From a candidate division WOR-3 bacterium (GTDB lineage Bacteria; Hydrothermota; Tepidihabitantia; SM23-42; JAOAFX01), in contig JBDRWD010000003.1 of the NCBI GenBank assembly GCA_039802205.1, positions 11,388 to 75,387 of the forward strand: 64,000 nucleotides of DNA, given 5' to 3'. Shown here piece by piece: positions 41,696 through 61,993 of this stretch; the first letter of the stretch is position 1; every line of letters starts with the position of its first letter. Made by a program: the position numbers and the translations under genes. The notes beneath the pieces were generated by a model. The model worked only from the letters and a program-made list of their open reading frames with translations. It was not told the origin of the DNA and ran no database searches.

Positions 41696-44600
41696 ATGGA
41701 GGAGTGTAAATTTTGTGGCTATAACAAAATTCTTGCATCGTATGAATACTGTCCTAACTGTGGTGCGTTGTTTAGAGCCACTGAGTCCGTTGTCGAGAGT
41801 GAACATGTTAAACTATGGGGTGGAGAGTCTCGGATTGTTACTTTATTTTTTGTGAATTTTATCGCCCCTCGTGCATTCGATGATCCAATAAAAGCAAGAC
41901 AAAACGCCATTTATCTTGCCGAAATTATGAATGATATTGAGAAATTAGTTATTCAACATGGGGGAAGTGCATACAAAATCATCCCGGATAATCGGATATT
42001 GGTCGTTTTTGGTATCCCACGTGCGTCAAAAGAAGACCTCGAACATGCCATTGAGTGTGTCATTGCGGTGCGGGAATATTGTCTCCACAGAATGGACCGC
42101 CGGGATTTTGGGGACTGGCATACAACCTACGGGGTTAATACCGGCTGGGTTTTTTTCGGGTATATTGTTAAAGGACTTTCTTATCTTACAATCATCGGGG
42201 ATACAGTCAATGTTGCAGCAAGAATTGCACAAATCTGTCCGCTGGATCAAATATTTATAAGTGATGCTGTATACGAAAGGATTTCACATTTAGTTGACGC
42301 CGAATTTATAGGAGAGCGAATTTTAAAAGGTCGTGCCCAACCGGTCCGGCTTTATAAATTAAATCAACTTTTGAAGGAAAAAAGGAAGCCAGCAGTATCC
42401 CGGTTCCCACTCTTAGGACGGGAACAGGAATTTGCACGTTTGATTAAGGCCCTGGATACGGTAAAAAAGAGAAAAGTACTTAAAGTTTTTGCTATTACAG
42501 GGCAGATGGGTATTGGAAAAACCCGATTGAAAGAAGAATTTAGAGAATATCTTAGAAAGCAGGAAGACCTTCAGGTATATGAAAGCTATTGTGCATTGGA
42601 AATTCACAGTCCGTATTATCCCTTTAAATTTTTCTTCAGAGAAATCATGGGCATAACAGAAATTGATGATGTGCAAAAAATCATCTACCGGATTGATAAG
42701 TTCGTCCGGGAAAACGGATTGACGGAGCAGGATGCCCAGGGTCTACGATACCTTTTTACTGCTGATACACGCCGGATTCGCGAGGAACGATTGCATAAAA
42801 TTCAGGAGGAGATTTTTAGTGCGGTAAAGAATACGCTTAGTGCCCTGGCGTGCAAGAAGCCACTGGTCTTGATTTTTGAAGAGTTTAATCGCGTCGATAA
42901 TCTAAGTCGGATGTTAGTTTACTTTCTGACACAAAAACTGGCTGATCAGCCAATTTTTATCTTGATGGTCAATTTCATTCCCGATACTGAGTTCAAATTT
43001 AATTTGCCTGTCGAAACAATTGCCCTTAATCCCCTTTCCTTTGAATCGGTATATGCGCTAATTAAGTTTGTTTTGGATAGTGATGTTGATGAACATTTAG
43101 CGGATTTTGTATTCCGGATCTCGGGTGGTAATCCACTTTTTGTTATTGAAACGATAAGGAATATAAAACGGACCCAGATGATTAAAAAGGATGACAAAGG
43201 GAAATGGTTTTTGGAAAGAGAAAAGAGATTGCCTTTTCTTGATGATCTTTATGGGGTGGTTATGTCGGGGGTGGATTCATTACCGGCATCCTATCGTCTG
43301 CTCATTGATTATGCAGCAGTGATTGGATACAGTTTTACTCGGAAAATAATTGCAGGATTATTAAGTGATGTAACAGATATTGAGGAACGGCTAACTTATC
43401 TGGCAAAAGAAGATTATATCGTCCAATTCCGTGATGGCGATGATCCGGTTTATATCTTTCGTCATAATCTGTTACGAGATGCCGTCTATACAACCCTGCC
43501 GATGAAAAAGAGAAAAGAGATCCATAAAAGGGTGGCGGACTTAATTGAGGATAAATATCAGACCTGCCTCACAGAGTATTTTGAGATACTCGCTCAGCAG
43601 TTCCTTGGCGGCGAAGAATTCAAAAAGGCGGCACACTATTTCCGGTTGTCAGGCTATAAGGCAAAGACCCTGTATTCTATCGAATCAGCAATAAATTTTT
43701 TCAATATCATTTTGCGTATAACCGAAGAACATCCTGAAATAATTGAGGAGGATTTAGTCTTAGATGCCCTCCTCAATCTCTGCGATCTTTATGAAATAAA
43801 GGGTGACATTCAACGAATGAAGTCGGTTGCCGAATTGGGTCAAGCGCGCGCAAGCAAATTGAATCTTAAAAATTGGCATTTAAGTTTTCTTGAGCGCCTT
43901 GCTACGGCATTTTATCTTTTAAATGAATACCCTAAAGCTGAAGAGCTATTTATTAATGCCATAGAATCATGTAATAATGAGATGTCAGAAGTTCTGACGG
44001 CGCTCTACACGGGATTGGGCATTCTATACCAGGCAAAAAATGAACCAGAAAAAAGTTTATTAAATTATAATCTTGCCTGGGTAACTGCCCGGAGCAACAA
44101 TTATCAGCAAGGTGAATATGATTGTCTTTTGAATCTTTCCAGGATGCATATCTTACTGGGTAATTATGAACTGAGTCTCGAATATTTGAACTATGCTTTA
44201 AACGAATTGCTGAATGAGGAGGAGATTCTTGAGCAGTCCGAAGTAAAATATCTTATGGGTGAAATATACTACCAGATAGGCAACTACGATTGGGCTGAGA
44301 ATTATTTTCGCGCGGCATTTGATCTAACGCGGCAGTTTGGGTTTGAAATTTCCCTTAGGTCAATCTTGGCACTCACGGTTTTGATGTCTCTGCGGGGTGA
44401 TGAAACTGGGGTGAAAAATAATTTGGACTTCATAGATAAAAATTTACCTCTTTTTGTTCGTGATAATTTGCTTGCCGAGATTAATCTTAAAAAAGGTTTT
44501 GTTTTTAAAAATCTACGGGAAGAAGAAAAAGCAGCAGTCTTTCTCAACAATGCATTGAAACTCATCCAGAAAATCGAGAATAGAGAATTAGAATTCTGGT

Positions 44601-44875
44601 GTCATTTATTCCTCGCGGATTTAGCAGAAATAAAAGCGCTCGATTATTTGAAAAAGGCACTGGACATCGGAGAAATGCTAAAATATCCACCGCTGATTGC
44701 CCATGCCCTTTATAAACTGGCACTGTATTACCAGAAACAGGGAATTCGTGAACAGGCTAATTACTACGGACGGAAAGCACTGTATATTTTGGATGATATA
44801 AAAAATCGGCTAAATCCAGAAAACCGCAAGTATTTCGGCAATAAAACAGAATATGTAACATTATTGGAGATGTAG
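41696..44875 (+). CDS. Zinc-ribbon / class III nucleotidyl cyclase (C2-like) / P-loop AAA_16 NTPase / TPR multidomain protein
   Basis: 1059 aa. C4xxC7...C19xxC22. Cyclase homology domain at about aa 45-225 (IVTLFFVNF..., YKIIPDNRILVVFGIP, TIIGDTVNVAARI). Walker A GQMGIGKT (aa 269-276). The C-terminal 450 aa or so are TPR-like repeats. Confidence 0.8.
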   Translation: MEECKFCGYNKILASYEYCPNCGALFRATESVVESEHVKLWGGESRIVTLFFVNFIAPRAFDDPIKARQNAIYLAEIMNDIEKLVIQHGGSAYKIIPDNRILVVFGIPRASKEDLEHAIECVIAVREYCLHRMDRRDFGDWHTTYGVNTGWVFFGYIVKGLSYLTIIGDTVNVAARIAQICPLDQIFISDAVYERISHLVDAEFIGERILKGRAQPVRLYKLNQLLKEKRKPAVSRFPLLGREQEFARLIKALDTVKKRKVLKVFAITGQMGIGKTRLKEEFREYLRKQEDLQVYESYCALEIHSPYYPFKFFFREIMGITEIDDVQKIIYRIDKFVRENGLTEQDAQGLRYLFTADTRRIREERLHKIQEEIFSAVKNTLSALACKKPLVLIFEEFNRVDNLSRMLVYFLTQKLADQPIFILMVNFIPDTEFKFNLPVETIALNPLSFESVYALIKFVLDSDVDEHLADFVFRISGGNPLFVIETIRNIKRTQMIKKDDKGKWFLEREKRLPFLDDLYGVVMSGVDSLPASYRLLIDYAAVIGYSFTRKIIAGLLSDVTDIEERLTYLAKEDYIVQFRDGDDPVYIFRHNLLRDAVYTTLPMKKRKEIHKRVADLIEDKYQTCLTEYFEILAQQFLGGEEFKKAAHYFRLSGYKAKTLYSIESAINFFNIILRITEEHPEIIEEDLVLDALLNLCDLYEIKGDIQRMKSVAELGQARASKLNLKNWHLSFLERLATAFYLLNEYPKAEELFINAIESCNNEMSEVLTALYTGLGILYQAKNEPEKSLLNYNLAWVTARSNNYQQGEYDCLLNLSRMHILLGNYELSLEYLNYALNELLNEEEILEQSEVKYLMGEIYYQIGNYDWAENYFRAAFDLTRQFGFEISLRSILALTVLMSLRGDETGVKNNLDFIDKNLPLFVRDNLLAEINLKKGFVFKNLREEEKAAVFLNNALKLIQKIENRELEFWCHLFLADLAEIKALDYLKKALDIGEMLKYPPLIAHALYKLALYYQKQGIREQANYYGRKALYILDDIKNRLNPENRKYFGNKTEYVTLLEM

Positions 44876-47855: not shown

Positions 47856-49859
47856 ATGGAAATGGTTGAGGAAAAAAAACGTCTTGAGCTTTTAAGCCGT
47901 ATTGACCACATTTTGGGCTCCTCATTCAATTTGAGCAAAGTCATCCGGATGATTTACAGAGAAATCAGCAAAGTGATGGATACAAGTAATTTCTATATTG
48001 CACTTTATAACCCCAAAACCCAGACAATTAAATTTGAAATTTATACGATTGAAGGAAGAGAGATTAATCCTATTTCGCGACCCCTTTCGGGAGGGCTTAC
48101 CGAATATGTCATAAAGACCAAAAAGCCACTGCTGATTAATAAAGACCTCAAGAAGTATTGTAGGAAACTTGGTATTACGCCCCAGGGCCGCGATGCCTAT
48201 AGCTGGCTTGGTGTCCCCATGATTTATAAAGGGAATGTTGAAGGGGTAATGACAGTTCAGGATTACGAAAGAGAAAATGCTTATACCTGGGAAGATGAGT
48301 TATTTTTAAGTAATATTGCCACTAAAGCCGCAGTGGTGATTGCCAACACCCGGCTTGTGGAAGAGGAGATACGCAGGGCAAAAGAACTTGAGATGTTAAA
48401 TAAGATAGTGCATCGTCTGACAAAAAGTCTTGATATCCAAGATATTTGCGAAAGCGTTGCGGATTCGATATTGGAATTTTTTAAGCAATTCAATGTAGCA
48501 GTATTCTTACGCGAAGGTGAAGAGTTGGTTTTAAAAAAAATTTCCCGGGGATTTTTAGATAAGATACCGAAAGATTTACGAATAAAAATGGGGCAGGGGA
48601 TAGTGGGTTCTTCGGCAGTAACGGGTGCCACCGTGGTGGTAAATGATGTAACTACAAACCACAGGTATATTGCATTTGGACGAACTTCTACCAGATCCGA
48701 GATAGCAATTCCCTTAAAAATTCATAAAAAACTAATGGGTGTTCTCGATATTCAATGTAATGAGCTGAATGCTTTTGACCCAGAGACGGTGCGCATTTTG
48801 GAATTGATTGCGGACCGTGTGAGTGTGGCATTTCATAATGCGATACTTTATGAAGAAGCGATTGCTCGAACACGGGAATTGACGACTTCTTTCACCATTG
48901 CCCAGTCTTTAGTCTCGACCTTGGAACTTGATGATGTGCTTAAGCGCATTCTTGATTGCATACGCAAAAACTTCGGTTATGAAAACTGCGCTATTTTGCT
49001 CGTTGATAAAAAAACTAATGAACTCTATGTTCAGGCTTCCAGCGGCTATCCCGAATATGTAACAAAAAACATCCGACTTAACATCACAAGAAAAGAAGGA
49101 GTTACCGGTTATGTGGCGGCGACCGGGAAACTCTATTATGTGCCAGACGTTAGAAAATGTCCCTTTTATGTAATGGGCAAAAAAACTATTAAATCCGAAG
49201 CTGCAATTCCCCTGATTGTCCGGGGTGAGGTGATAGGAGTGTTGGACATCGAAAGCGAAAGATTGAATGGGTTTACAGCTAATGATCTTAAGATGCTCAC
49301 GGTATTCGCTTCCCAGGCCGCAATCGCGATTGAGAATGCCCGGCTCTATAACGAGACAAAAGAGATGTCATTAACGGATTCCCTGACCAAAATTGCCAAC
49401 CGCCGGCACTTTGATTTAATATTGGAAAATGAAATCAAAAGAGGCAGGGGTTATGCCCGATATGTGAGTTTGGCGATGATTGATTTAGACCATTTTAAAG
49501 AATTCAACGATAAATATGGGCATCTGGCTGGAGATCAGCTTCTGATTTCCATTGCTGCCAAATTAAAAAACACGGTGCGGGAGACCGACCTCGTTGCCCG
49601 GTATGGGGGTGAGGAATTTGCCATTATTTTTCCGGAGACGCCAAATAGTGCCGCAATTAAGGTGTGTGAGAGGGTGCGGACAGCAGTGGAAAATAATTAT
49701 ATAATTCTAAAAAAATTCGGCAAGGTGGGAACCACCGTTTCAATCGGTCTGGCTACTTATCCTCAATCTGCCCAAAATGCCCAGGAATTGATACAAAAGG
49801 CAGACCGTGCACTGTACATGGCAAAAAGACTTGGGCGAAATCGCGTGGAAACGATTTAA
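47856..49859 (+). CDS. Multi-GAF diguanylate cyclase (GGDEF)
   Basis: 667 aa. Three GAF-like segments are followed by DSLTKIANRRHF...RETDLVARYGGEEFAIIF. The active site is GGEEF, and an RxxD I-site lies 5 residues upstream. Confidence 0.85.
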   Translation: MEMVEEKKRLELLSRIDHILGSSFNLSKVIRMIYREISKVMDTSNFYIALYNPKTQTIKFEIYTIEGREINPISRPLSGGLTEYVIKTKKPLLINKDLKKYCRKLGITPQGRDAYSWLGVPMIYKGNVEGVMTVQDYERENAYTWEDELFLSNIATKAAVVIANTRLVEEEIRRAKELEMLNKIVHRLTKSLDIQDICESVADSILEFFKQFNVAVFLREGEELVLKKISRGFLDKIPKDLRIKMGQGIVGSSAVTGATVVVNDVTTNHRYIAFGRTSTRSEIAIPLKIHKKLMGVLDIQCNELNAFDPETVRILELIADRVSVAFHNAILYEEAIARTRELTTSFTIAQSLVSTLELDDVLKRILDCIRKNFGYENCAILLVDKKTNELYVQASSGYPEYVTKNIRLNITRKEGVTGYVAATGKLYYVPDVRKCPFYVMGKKTIKSEAAIPLIVRGEVIGVLDIESERLNGFTANDLKMLTVFASQAAIAIENARLYNETKEMSLTDSLTKIANRRHFDLILENEIKRGRGYARYVSLAMIDLDHFKEFNDKYGHLAGDQLLISIAAKLKNTVRETDLVARYGGEEFAIIFPETPNSAAIKVCERVRTAVENNYIILKKFGKVGTTVSIGLATYPQSAQNAQELIQKADRALYMAKRLGRNRVETI

Positions 49860-54411: not shown

Positions 54412-54705
54412 TTAAGGCTTCGTCCTTTCCATTATAATATTTTTGAATACTTTTGACGGCCGGAAAAAGGGAACATACCGATCAGGAAGGGTGAATTCCT
54501 TGCCGGTTTTGGGCGCCCGCGAGGTCCGGCCGGGGCGTCTCCGCAATTCAAATGTGCCAAATTTTCTAATTTCTATCCTTTTTTCCTTCACCAGGGTTTC
54601 AATGATAAAGTCAATAAAGGCATCAATAAGTTTTTCAATATCCACTTTGGGATATATAGAACCAAATTTTGCCGATATTGCTTCAATTAATTGGTCACGG
54701 CGCAT
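54412..54705 (-). CDS. HU/IHF-family DNA-binding protein
   Basis: 97 aa. FGTFELRRRPGRTSRAPKTGKEFTLPDRYVPFFRPSK is the beta-arm with the conserved Pro. Confidence 0.85.
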   Translation of the reverse strand: MRRDQLIEAISAKFGSIYPKVDIEKLIDAFIDFIIETLVKEKRIEIRKFGTFELRRRPGRTSRAPKTGKEFTLPDRYVPFFRPSKVFKNIIMERTKP

Positions 54706-54720
54706 TTTTACCTCCTATTT

Positions 54721-54948
54721 TTATTTACATCCGGCGCAGGTTGTGCGCTGGCATCCACTACAGGCACTTTTGGGACCGATACTCTCTCCATTGGTCCCCT
54801 TGCTCCCGAAACCAAATATTGAAAACAATTTTTCAATATTTTTGCTTGAGCACTGTGGACACCGGATATTTTCTATTTCGCTTTTCTTTAATATCAGTTC
54901 TTCAAATTTAAAATTACAATCACAACAGCGGAATTCAAAAACAGGCAT
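54721..54948 (-). CDS. FmdB-family zinc-ribbon protein
   Basis: 75 aa. MPVFEFRCCDCNFKFE...CPQCSS, plus a Cys-rich tail. Confidence 0.8.
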   Translation of the reverse strand: MPVFEFRCCDCNFKFEELILKKSEIENIRCPQCSSKNIEKLFSIFGFGSKGTNGESIGPKSACSGCQRTTCAGCK

Positions 54949-54950
54949 GT

Positions 54951-55118
54951 TCAGATACCGATTTGTCGCTTGCGGCGTTTGGTTTTACGCCGTTCGGTCC
55001 AGGAACGGCGGTCGTGGGGACCTAGTTTACCTTCTTCAATCAATTTACGAAATTCCTCTTCCGTTAGGAGCCGCCTTCGTTCCCCTTTTCTCCGTTCTGG
55101 ATTTTTTCTTTTTTCCAT
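54951..55118 (-). CDS. Possible 55-aa Arg/Lys-rich microprotein
   Basis: Hand-translated as MEKRKNPERRKGERRRLLTEEEFRKLIEEGKLGPHDRRSWTERRKTKRRKRQIGI*. It lies between tRNA-fMet and the FmdB gene on the same strand. No convincing Shine-Dalgarno sequence. It is below the track cutoff. Confidence 0.35.
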   Translation of the reverse strand: MEKRKNPERRKGERRRLLTEEEFRKLIEEGKLGPHDRRSWTERRKTKRRKRQIGI

Positions 55119-55134
55119 ATATATCCTTTTTTAA

Positions 55135-55206
<72 letters not shown>

Positions 55207-55213
55207 CTGGTCA

Positions 55214-55241
55214 ATTATAACCAAAATCGAAAAAATGTCAA
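55214..55241 (-). promoter_or_regulatory. sigma70-type promoter abutting the initiator tRNA
   Basis: On the reverse strand: TTGACA, 16 nt, TATAAT. Only 7 nt separate the -10 box from the mature 5' nucleotide (55206). Confidence 0.55.
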
Positions 55242-55280
55242 GAGTTTTGCAGGAATCAACAATAGAATGTGAAATTAGAA

Positions 55281-56552
55281 TCAGAAAGGATTCAATATTT
55301 CCTTTATCCTCGGCAAATTGACCGGTGGGGGCATCCGAAATTGAATAACCCCGCTCAACTTTTGGTGCATAATTAATAGTCCGATGAATTCGCTCAGAAA
55401 TATTGCTAATGCCACACCAGTTCCTTTGAAAAGATAGCCGAGGACCGGTATCATCAGCAAATTCATTAGGGCAATCAAAAAGATAACTTTAAAAAATTTT
55501 CTCTCTTGGTTAAGGGCCACTAGTGCATAACCCCAGAGGGTGTTGAGAGGTGCAGTGATAAAATAAAGCAAAAGGATCCTCAACACCGGGGTAGCCGCTA
55601 TAAAGTTGGTCCCATAAATCAATCCAATTATTTTGGAAGCAAATATTCCGACACCCAGTGCAACGATGAGCGTAATCACCATAAGTGTAAGGGTAAAAAG
55701 TTCGATTATTAACGGAAGATGAGCAGGATTTTTTTTGCTCGCACGTGAAAGAATTGGAAAAACAAGATAATAAAATACCCGCTCGATGATCAACAATAAA
55801 AGCACTATCTTAAAACCCGCACTGAAAAGACCAACTTCTTTTTCACCATATAGCATTCTAAGCCAGATGGTGGGAAGATTGAATACTGCCTGATAAATGA
55901 TGGTTGCCAATCCAATAGGTAGGGCTGCGGATAACAGATTGGCGAATGCCGAAAAGTTGAACAAAACATATAGCCTTTTATATCTTTTGATAAAGAAAAA
56001 AATGAGCAATATTGTGGCAATTGTGTATCCGGCGAAAAAAGCTATGGGTATGGTAAGAATCTGTTTTGGGTTCCGGAGCAATATAAGAATGAAAATCAGA
56101 TAACCCAGACTCTGGATTATTTTACCGGTTGCGACGATTCCCATCTCTTCCCGCGCTTGAAAGACAAATTCAAGATTAAAGGCATAGGGTATCCCGGTAA
56201 AGAGATAAAACAGGATTACCGTTTTAACCTGGGTGGTTCCTGGGATCACGGTAAGCAAAGAAAGGAAAAAAATGAAAAGGAGAAGTGTTAGCGTAAACCT
56301 CGCTCCGGTGATTGTGCCAATTAGTGTATTGTCATTTTGTTCCCGGGAGACTTCCCGGGTACCGAGCGTTGTAAATCCGATATTGCTGAAGAGCAAAAGG
56401 TAGGTAAGGAAAGCCAGGGAATAATTTATCAAACCAAAACCTTCCACACCCAAGATACGGGCGATATAGGCGTTTGTAATAAATCCGAACAAGTGGCTTA
56501 ATCCCTCGCCAAAAAAGAGCCTGACAAAATTTTTAGATATTTTGTCCATCAT
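55281..56552 (-). CDS. Polysaccharide/oligosaccharide flippase (MOP/Wzx family)
   Basis: 423 aa and about 12 TM helices. The N-terminus NFVRLFFGEGLSHLFGFITNAYIARILGVEGFG is typical of the family. Confidence 0.7.
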   Translation of the reverse strand: MMDKISKNFVRLFFGEGLSHLFGFITNAYIARILGVEGFGLINYSLAFLTYLLLFSNIGFTTLGTREVSREQNDNTLIGTITGARFTLTLLLFIFFLSLLTVIPGTTQVKTVILFYLFTGIPYAFNLEFVFQAREEMGIVATGKIIQSLGYLIFILILLRNPKQILTIPIAFFAGYTIATILLIFFFIKRYKRLYVLFNFSAFANLLSAALPIGLATIIYQAVFNLPTIWLRMLYGEKEVGLFSAGFKIVLLLLIIERVFYYLVFPILSRASKKNPAHLPLIIELFTLTLMVITLIVALGVGIFASKIIGLIYGTNFIAATPVLRILLLYFITAPLNTLWGYALVALNQERKFFKVIFLIALMNLLMIPVLGYLFKGTGVALAIFLSEFIGLLIMHQKLSGVIQFRMPPPVNLPRIKEILNPF

Positions 56553-56573: not shown

Positions 56574-57239
56574 TTACTTTTTTGTCTTTTTCTCGTATGG
56601 GCAGAGTTGGTTTAAGGCACAAATGGGGCAGTTTGGATTTTTGGCGGTACAGATGTATCGGCCAAAGAGCACAAGCCCATTGGCGATAAACTGCCAGTCT
56701 TTTTCTGGAAAAATCTTTGCCAGGTCCTGTTCGATCTTTTCAGCTTCCTTTGCCCGGCTTAATTTCAACCGCTCGGTGGTAACCCTTATGACATGGGTAT
56801 CAACGACAATTGCCGGTTTCCCGAAGGCGTTGACCAAGACAGCGGAAGCAGTCTTCCGACCTACTCCCGGAAGCTGGGTGAGTTCTTCAATCGTTGCAGG
56901 TATTTTGCCGTGAAACTTTTCTACGATGACCTGGGCGCATTTTTTTATTAAAGCGGATTTCCTCCTGAAAAATCCGAGAGGTTTGATTATTTTGCATAAA
57001 TCAGCCATGTCGGCATGGGCAAGTTTTTCAGGTGTGGGATATTTAGAAAAAAGCATTGGTGTCACTTCGTTTACTTTTTTATCAGTAGTCTGGGCGGATA
57101 AAAGAACGGCAATCAGCAGTTCAAATTCATTTTTATAATTTAATTCAATCCGGGGTTCTGGAAAATGTTTTTTTATGCCTGCAATTATCTTTTCGGCAAT
57201 TAATTTTTTATCTTTTTCCATCATTTTCCTCCATTTCAA
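56574..57239 (-). CDS. nth: Endonuclease III
   Basis: LIAVLLSAQTTDKKVN, the HhH element LPGVGRKTA, VDTHV and the 4Fe-4S motif CTAKNPNCPICALNQLC. The start is uncertain (Met codons at 57239, 57224 and 57221). Confidence 0.85.
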   Translation of the reverse strand: MKWRKMMEKDKKLIAEKIIAGIKKHFPEPRIELNYKNEFELLIAVLLSAQTTDKKVNEVTPMLFSKYPTPEKLAHADMADLCKIIKPLGFFRRKSALIKKCAQVIVEKFHGKIPATIEELTQLPGVGRKTASAVLVNAFGKPAIVVDTHVIRVTTERLKLSRAKEAEKIEQDLAKIFPEKDWQFIANGLVLFGRYICTAKNPNCPICALNQLCPYEKKTKK

Positions 57240-58872
57240 TCATACATTGTAATATCTCCAGTTCATTTTTGTCAAACCAAATTAAGTTACACTCACTACA
57301 TTCATCAATTTCAATAAGATAGGCATAACTGAAAAATTTTCTCATCATTGGTTTCCCGCATTTCGGACACCTTCTTTTTTCCAAAGCAGGAATGTATAAC
57401 TTGGGATTCAACTTTTTCCCTCGTGTTTCTTTATACATCAACTTAGCACACCGGGTTAACTCGTCAGGGAATGTTTTGTCTTTCCGGACGATTATGCGGG
57501 GTAATTTTTCTTTTTCCACGAGCGAACCACCACAGAAGGCGCAGAGCCAGATGTAAAGTCCTTCATATTCCTGCGGAATCAGCCACTCCTTACAAAGGGG
57601 ACAGAGACGCCGCATTTTCCCGAGAGGAGTTTCTTTTATCTTTAAAAAATTGCTGAGTGTGGGTACATTTATGGCTTTCAATATCGGGCCATCATCACCA
57701 ATTTTCACTTCCGTATCAGGAGTGAGCCAATCCTGAGCCTGGAGCTGGTAAAGGGTAAAGGGTCCGAACCATTGGTCATCCTTTTGGGCAAAAACCACGA
57801 GCGGGGGTTTTTCGCTCTCTTCGCCGCCTGATTTTTTATAAGTGATTTCGGTAATCTGACTGATATCTGCATGGGCTTGGTCAAGAATTAATTGGAGTCT
57901 TTTCTGAAGGGGTGGGTGGGTGGAAAAAAGATGGGCAACGATATCCTCTCGGTCTTCCAGGGGATTTGCTTCAGGGCTGACGATAAAAATCGGCGTCAGA
58001 TAACTTGGTGGACCACGATAATGGCTAGCGATTTTATAGAGTGCCCGAGCAAGACTCAAGGGATTTCGGGTGTATTTTATTGCGTTTATATCAGCCCGGT
58101 ATTCCTTCTCCCGGGATATGAAAACGTATAATAACTGGGAAAGAAAATTCATGATTAAAAGAATGATGAATACTGGAGCGGTAAATAGCGCTCCAGCAAT
58201 TGCATTCCTTTGTCCTTTGCTGTAAAAAAACTCCTCGGTAGTTTTGCCCATTTGGTTCAGATTTTTGAGGATGCCATCTAATATTTCTCCATAAATGCCA
58301 AACAAACTACTGGCAACAGTTGTCAGGAGCGAGTCATTGGAGATGATGTGAGCCATCTCATGGGCGACTACTGCCTGGAGTTCATCGCGTTTGAGCCGGG
58401 AAATCGAACCTTCGGTCACACCGATGATATTCCTCCCATAGATATCCTGGAGGGCAAATGCATTCATAGCAATCGTGGGTAGGACATAAGGTTCTACTTT
58501 TATCCCACCACCTGCAATGGAGATTTCTTCGAGGATATTCTGGAAGATGTAGTGATACCGGTCGCTTTTATCTGGTGGGTGGGCATTAAAGGTTTTTAAT
58601 ATTTTTTCCACCATCTTCCGATTGGTATAAAACCAGTGTCCAAGGGCAAAGACGAAGGCGAATGTAAGGATAATGAGGGTGTCGTTCCCTATCAGGTGAA
58701 ATTTCATTTGGGGATTTTCCAATGATAATCGGAAATGGATTAGTAATTTAAAGATTGTCCAGATGCCAAAAAAAGAGATAAAATAAAAGAAAACCAAAAC
58801 ACCAAAGAGGAGATAGATGATATGGGTTTTCTCCTTTTCAATATCCCAGAAGACTTTTGACTCCTGCGGCAT
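57208..58872 (-). CDS. M48-family membrane metalloprotease with a GYF-like domain and two C-terminal zinc ribbons
   Basis: 554 aa. TM helices, VVAHEMAHII (HExxH), DDQWFGPFTLYQLQ (GYF_2-like), then CPLC...CAFCGG and CPKCG...CSEC. Confidence 0.7.
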   Translation of the reverse strand: MPQESKVFWDIEKEKTHIIYLLFGVLVFFYFISFFGIWTIFKLLIHFRLSLENPQMKFHLIGNDTLIILTFAFVFALGHWFYTNRKMVEKILKTFNAHPPDKSDRYHYIFQNILEEISIAGGGIKVEPYVLPTIAMNAFALQDIYGRNIIGVTEGSISRLKRDELQAVVAHEMAHIISNDSLLTTVASSLFGIYGEILDGILKNLNQMGKTTEEFFYSKGQRNAIAGALFTAPVFIILLIMNFLSQLLYVFISREKEYRADINAIKYTRNPLSLARALYKIASHYRGPPSYLTPIFIVSPEANPLEDREDIVAHLFSTHPPLQKRLQLILDQAHADISQITEITYKKSGGEESEKPPLVVFAQKDDQWFGPFTLYQLQAQDWLTPDTEVKIGDDGPILKAINVPTLSNFLKIKETPLGKMRRLCPLCKEWLIPQEYEGLYIWLCAFCGGSLVEKEKLPRIIVRKDKTFPDELTRCAKLMYKETRGKKLNPKLYIPALEKRRCPKCGKPMMRKFFSYAYLIEIDECSECNLIWFDKNELEILQCMIEMEENDGKR

Positions 58873-58878
58873 TTTTTA

Positions 58879-58906
58879 AGATTATCCATTTTCAATACAA
58901 AGTCAA
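58879..58906 (-). promoter_or_regulatory. sigma70-type promoter (leaderless layout) of the M48-nth-flippase operon
   Basis: On the reverse strand: TTGACT, 16 nt, TAATCT, then 6 nt to the ATG at 58872. Confidence 0.45.
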
Positions 58907-58918
58907 TATAAATATTTG

Positions 58919-59207
58919 CTGAGTTCCTCTCCATAGTTTGTTAAATTATTTTTATGCCGCTGGATTATTAAAGGTAACCGCACCCTTCAGGGTGCGAGAT
59001 AACCCAGGATTTAAAAAGATTTATCCGCAGGCTAAAGCCTGCGCCTACCATTTTACTGGTTACCATCCAAGAATTTCAAATTTATGCAAGGCTAAAGCCT
59101 TGCCCTACAAAAGTACCCAACGCTAAATTATTGATTACCCTTACAAATCTTGCCCATGGTTTCATCGTTCTTTCATAAGATATAAAAAAAATATGGAGAG
59201 AACTCAG
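58919..59207. mobile_element. MITE-like non-coding element with terminal inverted repeats and three tetraloop hairpins (copy B)
   Basis: Terminal inverted repeats CTGAGTTCCTCTCCATA (58919-58935) and TATGGAGAGAACTCAG (59192-59207), matching apart from one indel. Internal 7-bp-stem hairpins: cgcaccc-ttca-gggtgcg (58979-58996), cgcaggc-taaa-gcctgcg (59026-59043) and gcaaggc-taaa-gccttgc (59086-59103). No ORF. It is related to 916-1160 and 19705-19728. Confidence 0.55.
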
Positions 59208-59352
59208 AAATATCTAAATTGAGTATTGAAAAAGCAATCTACAGTTACTCGTTCAGGTGAGACTAAATTAAGCAGAAATTACCATCTGCCCTCGCTGAAA
59301 GTACTCTATAACCTTTCTGAAAAACCTTGTTATTCTTTTTACACTTTTTGAA

Positions 59353-61959
59353 TCAGTAGATTTGTGCCTGGTTTCTTAGTACCTGATAAAGTTTTTTATT
59401 TTCTGCCCGCAATTTTTTCTCTACTCGCTGGAGACATTTTACCAGGATATCAAAGGTGAGTTCTTTTGCTAAAACTCCAGGAAGATTTTCTTTCGCTGAG
59501 CGAATGATAGATAGTTTCTCGTTGGGAACAAGATCTTTTAATAATTCCCCATCTCCCTGTGCGGAGATGACCTTGGCAATGAGCAGTTTCATTTCTTCAC
59601 GGAGCAACTGCCAGAGTTCTTTTCCCTGAATGTGGGCAATCAATCGTCCCATAGCAAGAGAGACTGAAAGTATCGCATTCATTCCTAAATTGCCTTTGCG
59701 TTGCATGATTTCAATAAACTCATCAGGAGAAGCATTTTTGTCAATCTTACCCCGGGCAATGGCGATCTCTTTTTCGAGATTGAGCAATATTTTGTCAATC
59801 ATTGCGATGGAGGTAAATTCTGACAATTTGCGGCCTAAGAAATGGGGAGCGATGATGGTTACAATGTTATTTACAGCGTTCAAACATCCTTTTCCTTCAT
59901 AGCGCTGGACCATCTGCCATAGTGCTTCCAGCTGGGAGTCATTCTTTTCCTGAATATCTGATTCCTTAATTCCCTTTTTAAATTTAAAAGTTTTATCCGG
60001 CTGCGGTGAAAATAAATCGGGATACTTATCGGTTAAGATTGACTTCTCAATGGTACTATCTACAAGATGAATAGCTTCACCAGTACCAGCAGAGGTTCCC
60101 AGGGGAGTGGAACCGGTCATTTTTAATATCTTTTTGTATTCGGCACTTCCCGGGATTCCGGCGTAGATATTGACCCCAACACTAGGGATACCAGCATTGG
60201 TGGGTTCTTCATAAGCAATGATATCCGTGATCACGAGATTGTTCAAAAAATTCCTTACTTCGAGGAATTCTTTTTCTTCAAATTTCTTATCCTGGGCACT
60301 CAGGAGTTCTTTCATTATCTTGGTGATGGCACCGTACTTAAAGAGCCTTTCGGTGTTGGCACCGCCTCCTGCCTTCAGCCCCATAGTATTAGCCGAAAGG
60401 GCGATCTGCGCCTCCATATCATCATTTGGCGATTTGGAACGATGGGAGACGAGTAAATCCATTCCCTTACCCAGGGCTACCAGCATGGCAATCAAGGTTT
60501 CGGAAAGGGTTCCGATCTGATTTGCCTTGATAAGCGCCGTATTCATGAGACCATCATCGGCACATTTTTCAATTGTGGAGTCTTTGGTGGTGACAATATC
60601 GTCGCCGATTATGAATAACGTATCGCCAAATTCCTTCATCAAAAGTCGCCAACCTTCATAGTCGTCTTCTGCAAATGCATCCTCAAGCGAAAAGACCGGG
60701 AGTTCATCAACAGTCTTTTTATACAATTCAAGCAACTGATCGCGGGACATGACCACTTTTTCTTCACTACGCCAGAAATAGTACATACCGATTGCATCAG
60801 GTTGGTTGAATTCTTCCCGGTAGGCATTGCTCAATTCACTAAGAGCCGGGTCAAAGGCAAGTGCGATATCTTCACCAGGGCGGTATCCGATATCCTTTAT
60901 TGCCTGAATGGCCATCCGCCAGAGGCGTTGTTCAGGAACAATATCGCCTGGCTCTTTGGCGATGTAAGGTGCCAAACCACCCTCCAATCCGATTCCCATC
61001 ACCCGAGCACCTTCTGATTTTTCAATGATTTCTTTTAACCGGGTTTGCAGAGCAACCGTAATCATCTGGGCTTCTTCGTAATTTTTGGCACAAAGCGGTA
61101 GAAACATCATCTCCTGCATACTGATGTTACTTTCTGGATACTCTTTTTCGGTATGTCTGCCCCCCATACCACAATTCCGGAATTGCCAGGGTGCGCTCAC
61201 CACCTCACCATCTCGCAATTTGATACTTTGGATTCTTTTTTCCATCATCATCTTTTTTACCTCTTGCGCTTTTGCCCGCCAGCCCACCTTTGTTACTTCA
61301 ATCCGTTCAGCCTTTTGCTTTGCTTTGGTTTCCCGTTCTTTGAATTCTCGGTATTTTCCAGGGTCGGCAAGAAGGAAATCGAGTAATCCCACCGTGCCTA
61401 TGCCTAAGCATAAACGACCCAGATAGACAGAAATGATATAATCACCAATCAGTCCCACCGCCAAAAGGATTACTGCAATTGGAAGCATTATCAGCGCCAT
61501 GTTTCCGCTGATTTCAGGCCCAGCAGCGGCAACGCTGAGATTGAATGGTGCCTCAGGGTAATAAGTTAATCCTTCTTTTTTGACTCCGACGAATTTTCCG
61601 TAGGGAATCTTGATGAACATTTCTATATACCAGAATAATTTACTCAATCCCGAACTTTTGTATCGCTTTTGTGCAGCCGGAAGAATGTTCTCATTCAGGG
61701 CATTGAGTTTAACTGCTCGGAGATAATGTCCCATTTCATGAATGGCAACCCCGGTATGAAAACTTACAAACCAGAAGATTGCAGAAATTATGGTATCAAA
61801 ACTTGTGAAGACGAAGCCCAGCACCTCCTTTCCCTGCAGACCTTTGGGAATACACAAAACAGAGGAGATAAAAGCAACATGGAAGGAAACAAGGATATGG
61901 TTGGCGATTACCCAACCGGAATGGAGTTTTTGTTTTAAGTGGTTAATGATGTTCTTCAT
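59353..61959 (-). CDS. Membrane HExxH (M50-like) domain fused to a circularly permuted enolase-like enzyme
   Basis: 868 aa.
- aa 1-200: TM helices carrying HEMGH (aa 74-78) and a possible LLDF second motif.
- aa 255-552: aligns by eye to the enolase TIM barrel (GMGGRHTE, SMQEMMFLP, GIGLEGGLAP, IALAFDPALSE, VFSLEDAF, IIGDDI, ALIKANQIGTLSET, VSHRSKSPNDD, GLKAGGGANTERLFKY).
- aa 575-788: aligns to the enolase N-terminal domain (ITDIIAYEEPTNAGIPSVGVNIY, TPLGTSAGTGEAIHL, YEGKGCLNAVNN, GNLGMNAILSVSLA). Confidence 0.7.
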   Translation of the reverse strand: MKNIINHLKQKLHSGWVIANHILVSFHVAFISSVLCIPKGLQGKEVLGFVFTSFDTIISAIFWFVSFHTGVAIHEMGHYLRAVKLNALNENILPAAQKRYKSSGLSKLFWYIEMFIKIPYGKFVGVKKEGLTYYPEAPFNLSVAAAGPEISGNMALIMLPIAVILLAVGLIGDYIISVYLGRLCLGIGTVGLLDFLLADPGKYREFKERETKAKQKAERIEVTKVGWRAKAQEVKKMMMEKRIQSIKLRDGEVVSAPWQFRNCGMGGRHTEKEYPESNISMQEMMFLPLCAKNYEEAQMITVALQTRLKEIIEKSEGARVMGIGLEGGLAPYIAKEPGDIVPEQRLWRMAIQAIKDIGYRPGEDIALAFDPALSELSNAYREEFNQPDAIGMYYFWRSEEKVVMSRDQLLELYKKTVDELPVFSLEDAFAEDDYEGWRLLMKEFGDTLFIIGDDIVTTKDSTIEKCADDGLMNTALIKANQIGTLSETLIAMLVALGKGMDLLVSHRSKSPNDDMEAQIALSANTMGLKAGGGANTERLFKYGAITKIMKELLSAQDKKFEEKEFLEVRNFLNNLVITDIIAYEEPTNAGIPSVGVNIYAGIPGSAEYKKILKMTGSTPLGTSAGTGEAIHLVDSTIEKSILTDKYPDLFSPQPDKTFKFKKGIKESDIQEKNDSQLEALWQMVQRYEGKGCLNAVNNIVTIIAPHFLGRKLSEFTSIAMIDKILLNLEKEIAIARGKIDKNASPDEFIEIMQRKGNLGMNAILSVSLAMGRLIAHIQGKELWQLLREEMKLLIAKVISAQGDGELLKDLVPNEKLSIIRSAKENLPGVLAKELTFDILVKCLQRVEKKLRAENKKLYQVLRNQAQIY

Positions 61960-61965
61960 ACATTG

Positions 61966-61993
61966 AGTATATTTAAATCTTCACACGTGTCAA
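61966..61993 (-). promoter_or_regulatory. sigma70-type promoter (leaderless layout) of the enolase-fusion gene
   Basis: On the reverse strand: TTGACA, 16 nt, TATACT, then 6 nt to the ATG at 61959. Confidence 0.55.

Follow-up and report, generated by a model that had tools for sequence, protein, structure and literature searches.

A 64,000-nucleotide stretch of DNA from a candidate division WOR-3 bacterium (assembly GCA_039802205.1, contig JBDRWD010000003.1, positions 11,388 to 75,387; the whole stretch is called the window below) encodes an 868-amino-acid (aa) protein in which the two domains of enolase stand in reversed order, fused behind an N-terminal membrane domain. Enolase is usually a single-copy, soluble enzyme with a fixed domain order. 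Here, a very conservative enzyme is found rearranged, with its order permuted, a membrane anchor in front and the active-site residues intact. We hypothesized that the protein is a specialized, catalytically competent hydro-lyase for 2-phosphoglycerate (2-PG) and phosphoenolpyruvate (PEP), which would be held at the cytoplasmic face of the membrane by a zinc-site-bearing domain resembling the site-2 proteases (S2Ps). We consider this reading probable, with considerable reserve.

Relatives of the protein occur in several hundred uncultivated species from at least 10 phyla, including Asgard archaeal metagenome-assembled genomes (MAGs), which points to an unrecognized membrane-localized use of the 2-PG/PEP node. 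The obligate pairing with an S2P-like domain hints at one of two roles, the control of intramembrane proteolysis by metabolites, or a transfer of energy and phosphoryl groups tethered to the membrane. The family also offers a natural test case for the circular permutation of a two-domain barrel enzyme.

Domain order and active site of the enolase module

Searches with Pfam profiles placed Enolase_C at aa 262-555 (E 1.8e-50), ahead of Enolase_N, which matched aa 684-786 with E 2e-10. The Enolase_N match, at 41.4 bits, exceeds its Pfam cut-off of 35; the Peptidase_M50 match of the membrane domain falls below its own. In homologs of the window protein, the Enolase_N profile aligned from its position 1, showing that the entire capping domain follows the barrel. 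The closest solved relatives among the Protein Data Bank (PDB) sequences were ordinary enolases, for example that of B. subtilis (4A3R, E 1e-44).

An AlphaFold2 (AF2) model of the full-length protein, made with the family alignment, formed a single body with a mean predicted local distance difference test score (pLDDT) of 86.5 and a predicted template modelling score (pTM) of 0.83. Its secondary structure showed an eight-fold barrel pattern at aa 245-557, a three-stranded sheet with helices at aa 576-781, and a helical tail at aa 782-865. Foldseek, which depends on sequence order, aligned the barrel alone to enolase structures, with a root-mean-square deviation (RMSD) of 2.4-3.0 Å over about 300 columns.

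For comparison in the canonical order, aa 561-800 followed by aa 241-560 were re-joined and aligned to yeast ENO1 and to three canonical bacterial enolases from related loci. The re-joined protein was colinear with these sequences, and its capping strands at aa 576-617 aligned to yeast ENO1 residues 1-35; the protein is hence a genuine circular permutation. A new connector, aa 558-575, links what was the C-terminal end of the barrel to what was the N-terminal end of the capping domain, and the original inter-domain link is open. Insertions specific to the family lie within the capping domain at about aa 635-684 and 730-750. A preliminary description of the window, made from its sequence, had placed the barrel first and the capping domain second. 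Both the order of the Pfam matches and the colinear alignment bear this out, and the nucleotide coordinates it gave for the two halves were arithmetically correct.

The re-joined alignment also assigned the residues of the active site. All ten catalytic and metal-binding residues that had been listed earlier as a complete set map exactly as listed, with yeast ENO1 S39, H159, E168, E211, D246, E295, D320, K345, H373 and K396 corresponding to S623, H269, E283, E326, D370, E426, D453, K478, H506 and K529 of the window protein, respectively. Yeast Q167, R374 and S375 further correspond to Q282, R507 and S508. In the yeast sequence used for the alignment, all ten landmark residues fall at their textbook numbers.

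In a family alignment of 114 sequences (homologs at 50-88% identity), the ten residues are invariant, as are the phosphate binders R507 and S508. Residues T618-G625, E628, A629, H631, L632 and D634 of the active-site lid loop are likewise invariant, and the pLDDT of the AF2 model falls to 69 at this loop, as expected for a mobile one. The invariance of the loop and the high pTM of the model lend indirect support to a lid seated over the barrel. Of the 185 columns conserved in canonical enolases, 75 are unchanged here, every first-shell residue among them.

Nonsynonymous divergence (dN) was calculated against relatives at 81-88% protein identity, for which synonymous divergence (dS) is saturated. 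The values were 0.04-0.09 for the barrel, 0.06-0.08 for the membrane domain and about 0.10 for the capping domain, rising to 0.22 for the latter in the relative at 81% identity. The C-terminal tail gave the highest values of the protein (0.19-0.29, relatives at 83-88% identity). The low dN against a saturated dS indicates strong purifying selection on all three main modules. Together with catalytic residues that are invariant across phyla, this agrees with the earlier view that the protein is not a decayed relic, its activity being a prediction from sequence.

The membrane domain

Hydropathy analysis revealed four hydrophobic helices N-terminal to the enolase part, at about aa 16-35, 46-84, 141-172 and 175-197, with the HEMGH motif inside the predicted helix 54-84. 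The membrane anchoring proposed in the preliminary description was thereby upheld. The loops at aa 85-140 and 198-245 are basic, with 8 and 15 Lys/Arg residues, respectively, and the turn at aa 171-176 is not. The AF2 secondary structure contains a β-hairpin at aa 126-135, in the cytoplasmic loop. By the positive-inside rule, this distribution of Lys and Arg would put the N-terminal end of the protein, the end of helix 2 that bears HExxH, the β-hairpin and the entire enolase part in the cytoplasm, and we infer that the enolase part lies on the cytoplasmic face of the membrane.

Within the 114-sequence alignment H74, E75, H78, N140, G147, D194 and D199 are invariant, and so is the AAGP motif of helix 3. 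In the protein P0154, D194 is replaced by Asn and D199 is kept. The first membrane helix (aa 12-35, nt 61855-61926, LHxGWVIANHILVSFHVAFISSVL), which contains N20, H21 and H27, is near-invariant across phyla. It is the most conserved stretch of the protein and exceeds most of the enolase part in this respect.

The domain had been called M50-like. Peptidase_M50 (PF02163) matches the window protein at aa 65-238 with E 0.009 and 15.8-16.7 bits, against a gathering score of 27.2. The N-termini of 25 of 26 family members matched the profile at E<=1 (best E 1.6e-7), and three homologs (P0040, P0056 and P0060) exceeded the gathering score, with 27.7-29.7 bits. The alignment is confined to profile positions 3-106 of 221, and the half containing the LDG motif never aligns. 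A search of the PDB sequences with the family profile found no S2P. For a separate model of the N-terminal region (pLDDT 70), Foldseek ranked the S2P of M. jannaschii (3B4R) 27th, with E 1.9, a template modelling (TM) score of 0.26-0.29 and an RMSD of 7 Å, which is not significant. Alignment by hhalign with the sole M50-like open reading frame (ORF) in the fetched loci of relatives covered the HExxH helix alone, with a probability of 4%.

The earlier label is thus partly sustained. The HExxH in a transmembrane helix, the M50 similarity of nearly all members and the three that pass the threshold speak for it; the sub-threshold score of the window protein and the non-significant fold match do not. 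The comparisons give moderate support to a divergent S2P-like domain, of which membership in M50 is not demonstrated.

These features raise an alternative, in which the working part of the protein is the membrane domain, a site-2-type intramembrane protease, with the enolase as its cytoplasmic regulatory or gating domain. Occupancy by 2-PG or PEP would, via closure of the lid loop, open or close access to the zinc site, comparable with the CBS domain that B. subtilis SpoIVFB carries and the PDZ domains that E. coli RseP carries. Such a protease would account for the invariance of HExxH, N140, the AAGP motif, D194 and D199, and for the M50 similarity across the family. It is also in line with the position of the enolase, which directly follows the helix with the candidate third metal ligands, on the cytoplasmic side of the membrane, the one to which the active sites of S2Ps open. 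The extreme conservation of helix 12-35 would fit a membrane-embedded functional site. However, a pure sensor would not need the invariant K478/E326 acid-base pair or H506, and the lack of significant fold similarity to the M. jannaschii enzyme also counts against a protease. We regard a metabolite-gated protease as unlikely, and several properties of the relatives, given below, bear on it further.

Relatives, gene context and proposed function

A protein search gave 966 matches. More than 110 of these, from NCBI, JGI, ENA and Logan assemblies, were full-length at 50-88% identity, all with the same domain content and annotated merely as 'hypothetical protein' or 'enolase', labels that could mislead metabolic reconstructions of these phyla. 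One match, located on an independent 6-kb contig, differs from the window protein at three residues (99.7% identical). A scan of one genome per species found the same architecture in 301 species-representative genomes from at least 10 phyla. The phyla and groups include WOR-3 (to which best matches assign the window itself), Stahlbacteria, Omnitrophota, Acidobacteriota/Aminicenantes, Planctomycetota, Cloacimonadota, Ignavibacteria/Chlorobiota, Gemmatimonadota and Desulfobacterota, and two Asgard MAGs.

That the ORF arose as an artefact, through an assembly chimera, a frameshift fusion of neighboring genes or the decay of a pseudogene, is vanishingly improbable. The unusual domain order was the sole ground for suspecting one. 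The same colinear architecture recurs in the 301 genomes, over 100 independent clusters of proteins share it, and the nearly identical copy stands on its own contig. The ORF is uninterrupted, every segment of it is under strong purifying selection, and its GC content matches that of the window. An assembly chimera or pseudogene was ruled out by the recurrence together with the purifying selection.

The two Asgard MAGs (Promethearchaeota, Sifarchaeum) carry full-length members at 52-53% identity (L039:10001-12589 and L040:1466-4054). At both loci an enolase-like ORF lies about 0.7 kb downstream on the opposite strand, and horizontal transfer and bin contamination are both possible. The WOR-3 MAG JBDRWA01 (JZ-2_201709_bins_162) contains two copies on different contigs (L007:1017-3617 and L020:6207-8810), 81% and 86% identical to the window protein, which may be paralogs or reflect a mixed bin.

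To relate the two modules, a profile of the membrane domain was searched against 1.84 billion protein cluster representatives, and 138 proteins matched. All 11 full-length matches that were checked contained Enolase_C followed by Enolase_N, and nine of them exceed 1,000 aa. Eight shorter matches were also checked; three contained the start of Enolase_C only, one the barrel only, and four had no Pfam match. Fragments aside, no membrane domain without an enolase part was found among these 19 of the 138 matches. That the modules were never apart in any match checked favors a gated protease. The divergent protein P0248 (859 aa) argues against one, as HExxH, D194 and D199 are missing from it and the catalytic residues of enolase are all retained. 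Retention of the enolase site with loss of HExxH identifies this site as the most deeply conserved feature, pointing to it as the core function. The H-loop of P0248 is nearer to that of canonical enolase (GGEHG), and the protein could be an intermediate form, or belong to a lineage whose membrane domain acts solely as an anchor.

Gene context was examined in 80 fetched loci of relatives. A canonical enolase gene (eno) lies directly downstream of the permuted gene in 11 of them, including those of a complete WOR-3 chromosome and both Asgard MAGs, and equal lengths of the longest contig suggest that in seven more family members the two genes are on one contig. The permuted protein of such genomes is thus likely to be an extra, rather than the housekeeping, enolase. 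Except for eno in this subset, no gene was found conserved beside the permuted enolase across phyla in the 80 loci. Genes typical of S2P substrates, such as those for anti-sigma or extracytoplasmic function (ECF) sigma factors, show no conservation in the neighborhood, which is a further point against a gated protease.

Two loci from other MAGs (L082:2015-4284 and L083:1878-4284) show the context of DUF6029, Fer4_5 and canonical eno found in Stahlbacteria-type loci, with the permuted gene absent. Loci of the L012 type hold the permuted enolase between Fer4_5 and eno, and L082 also keeps the upstream redoxin gene. The comparison suggests insertion, loss or relocation of the permuted gene at that spot.

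Long forms of the protein, complete ORFs of 1,800-2,400 aa, were present in 22 of the 80 loci, with a few more cut at contig ends (L034, L038, L041, L043-L046, L048-L051, L054-L056, L059-L062, L064, L071, L072, L075, L076 and L078; an example is L050:9980-16060). Their hosts are Aminicenantes, Planctomycetota, Gemmatimonadota, Eiseniibacteriota and Desulfobacterota. Past the conserved C-terminal motif, the long forms contain a low-complexity linker, about 690 unannotated residues, and two domains known from pyruvate phosphate dikinase (PPDK), the nucleotide-binding and the phosphohistidine one. This ATP-grasp/phosphohistidine module matches PPDK structures with E 6e-46 and contains the catalytic GGxTSHAA, and the PEP/pyruvate barrel of PPDK is missing. 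The short form in the window stops before the module, and no PPDK-like module was found in the window. As a Rosetta-stone link, the fusion ties the permuted enolase to PEP-dependent phosphotransfer.

Omnitrophota variants contain the core within giant ORFs, with UDP-glucose pyrophosphorylase, cupin-type glucose-6-phosphate isomerase (GPI) and ELFV dehydrogenase domains. The fusion partners of the relatives are hence metabolic enzymes, not signalling domains, which again counts against a gated protease. In the Omnitrophota MAG PCTH01000062.1 (L032:751-10395), a 3,214-aa ORF contains an ELFV (Glu/Leu/Phe/Val) dehydrogenase, followed by the core of M50-like domain and permuted enolase and then by UDP-glucose pyrophosphorylase. 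The dehydrogenase is itself reversed, with the NAD-binding part before the dimerisation domain. In L037, a cupin-type GPI domain takes the place of the UDP-glucose pyrophosphorylase at the C-terminal end. A 6,041-aa ORF in JGI 3300027815 Ga0209726_10000900 (L081:3001-21126) has the M50-like and permuted enolase core in mid-protein and a weak FAD/NAD(P)-binding match further on, with most of its length free of Pfam matches; the upstream ORF of 1,308 aa contains a triosephosphate isomerase domain.

The pairing and the long forms allow a broader possibility, in which an as yet unrecognized membrane machine would use the permuted enolase together with the S2P-like domain as a single mechanistic unit. 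It might be (a) an intramembrane protease gated by turnover or occupancy of the glycolytic site, or (b) a phosphotransfer device driven by 2-PG/PEP, in which the enolase barrel of the long forms would replace the missing PEP/pyruvate domain of PPDK. In version (b), the swivelling phosphohistidine would shuttle phosphate between PEP formed in situ and AMP/PPi or ATP at the membrane, and the 868-aa protein of the window would be the conserved core of the device. Taken together, the two versions are speculative, and we give them a low probability.

We propose instead a two-module inner-membrane protein. The first module would be a four-helix domain distantly related to the site-2 (M50) zinc metalloproteases, with HExxH in helix 2, AAGP in helix 3 and a conserved Asp at the cytoplasmic end of helix 4. 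The second is a complete permuted enolase with intact first-shell residues, comprising those of two Mg sites, K478 as the base, E326 as the acid, and R507 and S508 as phosphate binders. This module would still bind Mg2+ and interconvert 2-PG and PEP, acting at the membrane surface as a second, specialized enolase and not as the housekeeping one. The membrane domain would serve as the anchor, and probably also have a zinc-dependent hydrolytic or regulatory function.

Several findings weigh against this proposal. The match to the NCBIfam enolase equivalog TIGR01060 is split into two stretches and reaches 220.6 bits, against a cut-off of 300, and identity to any canonical enolase is about 30%. 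Positions fixed in canonical enolases are fixed differently here (DSRGN to PTNAG, PSGASTG to PLGTSAG, E47 to H631, N155 to M265, D210 to L325, SGET to SKSP and APAR to GGAN), and the H159 loop contains an invariant 5-residue insertion. The fixed second-shell changes and this insertion make a changed substrate or altered kinetics possible. R8, E20 and R414 of the yeast enzyme, which we take to be its dimer salt-bridge residues, are replaced. A separate canonical eno, to be looked for according to the preliminary description, adjoins the permuted gene in the 11 loci of relatives, but none was found in the 64-kb window. Finally, HExxH is invariant in nearly all members, which speaks for a role of the membrane domain beyond anchoring, and a purely metabolic reading does not account for that role.

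The same changes would suit a neofunctionalized enzyme of the enolase fold, which keeps the metal-stabilized carboxylate enolate and β-elimination but acts on a substrate other than free 2-PG. The membrane domain might, for instance, supply it with a phospho-acid that is associated with the membrane or modified in some other way. Second-shell residues and loops have been systematically changed and then fixed, as in the H159 loop; the score lies under the equivalog cut-off; and the protein is more divergent from canonical enolases than these would be expected to be from one another. The protein is also always membrane-bound, and in Planctomycetota the gene adjoins ORFs that we take, by eye and from their sequences alone, to be phosphatidylserine synthase-like and decarboxylase-like. 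Against this, every known contact with 2-PG/PEP is unchanged, including R507, S508 and both metal sites, the PPDK-type fusion of the long forms points to PEP itself, and the data name no candidate alternative substrate. We consider a new substrate quite improbable. The departures from canonical enolase fit a retained chemistry with altered loops, quaternary structure or regulation, and leave some room for an altered substrate.

Features of the gene and window, and comparison with known systems

The permuted-enolase ORF is a real gene of expressed type, with its own conserved, predicted leaderless-type promoter (Table 1). A consensus scan identified a near-consensus TTGACA-16 nt-TATACT-6 nt-ATG and found no Shine-Dalgarno sequence ahead of the ATG. 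Phylogenetic footprinting showed that TTGACA-16/17 nt-TATAnT-5/6 nt-ATG is kept in 10 of 10 aligned WOR-3 relatives, the remaining upstream DNA being unconserved. The predicted leaderless promoter of the preliminary description is consistent with this pattern of conserved hexamers and spacing between unconserved flanks.

Table 1. Coordinates of the permuted-enolase gene, its protein segments and flanking signals in the window
Feature	Position (nt)	Strand	Evidence and remarks
Whole coding sequence, 868 aa + stop	59353..61959	(-)	ORF list, full-length homologs at 50-88% identity, AF2 model
Membrane domain, aa 12-201, M50/site-2-protease-like	61357..61926	(-)	Hydropathy, charge distribution, AF2, weak Pfam M50 match
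HEMGH (H74 E75 M76 G77 H78), putative zinc-binding/catalytic motif	61726..61740	(-)	Inside predicted helix 54-84
LLDFLLADPG segment with D194 and D199, candidate third metal ligands	61363..61380	(-)	Helix 4, at its cytoplasmic end
Charged helical linker, aa 202-244, 15 Lys/Arg	61228..61356	(-)	Joins membrane domain to barrel
Enolase TIM-barrel half, aa 245-557	60289..61227	(-)	Pfam Enolase_C, PDB sequence matches, Foldseek, residue mapping, invariance
New connector, aa 558-575, permutation junction	60235..60288	(-)	Re-joined-sequence alignment; AF2 helix 566-573
Enolase capping (N-terminal-type) domain, aa 576-781	59617..60234	(-)	Pfam Enolase_N, alignment, AF2 secondary structure
Active-site lid loop GSTPLGTSAGTGEAIHLVD, aa 616-634, with S623 (= yeast S39, Mg-II ligand)	60058..60114	(-)	Invariance and mapping
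C-terminal helical tail, aa 782-868	59356..59616	(-)	Ends in conserved LYxxLRxQxP(I/V)Y motif
-35-like hexamer TTGACA	61988..61993	(-)	Consensus scan; TTGAC invariant in 10 WOR-3 relatives
-10-like hexamer TATACT	61966..61971	(-)	6 nt 5' of ATG, leaderless-type; consensus scan and alignment of 10 relatives
Terminator-like hairpin	59270..59291	(-)	About 60 nt past the stop codon; consensus scan alone

The neighborhood in the window is that of an ordinary chromosome, with FtsY, a VTT/DedA-like gene, an M48 peptidase, an HhH-GPD glycosylase (Nth-like), FtsK, dnaG-rpoD and DnaE. An Rfam scan of the window found three tRNAs only, and no RNA element at the permuted-enolase locus.

The gene 3' of the permuted enolase (57208-58872, minus strand) encodes a second membrane metalloprotease, M48/HtpX-like, with HEMAH and a C-terminal Zn-ribbon region. 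Ten WOR-3 loci carry this M48 and Zn-ribbon gene directly downstream of the permuted enolase, and one further locus has it downstream at a distance of about 2.4 kb. In six others, from Stahlbacteria and unclassified MAGs, the gene is located no more than 10 kb away, and other phyla do not have it in the neighborhood. The spacer between the two genes (58873-59352) is unusually long, at 480 nt against about 50-140 nt in close relatives, and holds three similar GC-rich hairpins: GCAAGGCTTTAGCCTTGC, GCAGGCTTTAGCCTGC and GCACCCTGAAGGGTGC. No other occurrence of the exact 16-mer of these hairpins was found in the window.

Elsewhere in the window, a 292-aa ORF with a TTG start (54443-55321, plus strand) has no Pfam match, overlaps an opposite-strand tRNA gene (55135-55206, minus strand) and is probably spurious. 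A 1,059-aa protein (41696-44875, plus strand) has an adenylate/guanylate cyclase domain joined to an AAA_16 ATPase and to TPR repeats, and a GAF-GGDEF protein is encoded nearby, at 47856-49859.

In full-text literature searches, neither a permuted nor a membrane-tethered enolase was found described, in agreement with the preliminary description, and neither was a fusion of enolase with an S2P. NCBIfam has no dedicated model for a permuted enolase, and the arCOG paper on archaeal enolase paralogs deals with soluble, unpermuted enzymes. Natural permutation of domains around a catalytic barrel has a precedent in E. coli MalS, of GH13_19 (PMC10223318). MalS is unrelated to the permuted enolase in family and chemistry, and within enolases we found no precedent for domain permutation.

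Comparison with canonical enolase (EC 4.2.1.11; B. subtilis 4A3R and yeast ENO1) shows that the window protein has the same two domains, the same barrel fold and the same catalytic, metal-binding and phosphate-binding residues. It differs in the reversed domain order with a new 18-aa connector, the N-terminally fused domain of four transmembrane helices, and the 87-aa helical C-terminal tail. It also differs in insertions at about aa 271-275, 597-607, 635-684 and 730-750, and in the replacement of second-shell and putative dimer-interface residues.

The membrane domain resembles the M50 S2Ps (M. jannaschii S2P 3B4R, RseP and SpoIVFB) in several respects. Its HExxH lies within a transmembrane helix close to the cytoplasmic face, an (A/G)GP helix comes next, a later helix has conserved Asp, and the cytoplasmic loop contains a β-hairpin. 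In both, the core also carries a soluble domain, an enolase here and PDZ or CBS domains there. In contrast to these S2Ps, the NxxPxxxLDG motif is not recognizable in the family, the appended domain is an enzyme of central metabolism, and the gene context suggests no proteolytic substrate.

Two parts of PPDK (1KBL, 9PZL) recur in the long forms, its nucleotide-binding domain (residues 13-338) and, with GGxTSHAA, its phosphohistidine swivel domain. Unlike PPDK, the long forms lack a PEP/pyruvate TIM barrel of their own, and the enolase barrel and the unannotated region of about 690 aa precede the module. Both domain families of the window protein are known; judged from the sequences, what is new is the permutation, the obligate fusion and the PPDK-type extension of the long forms.

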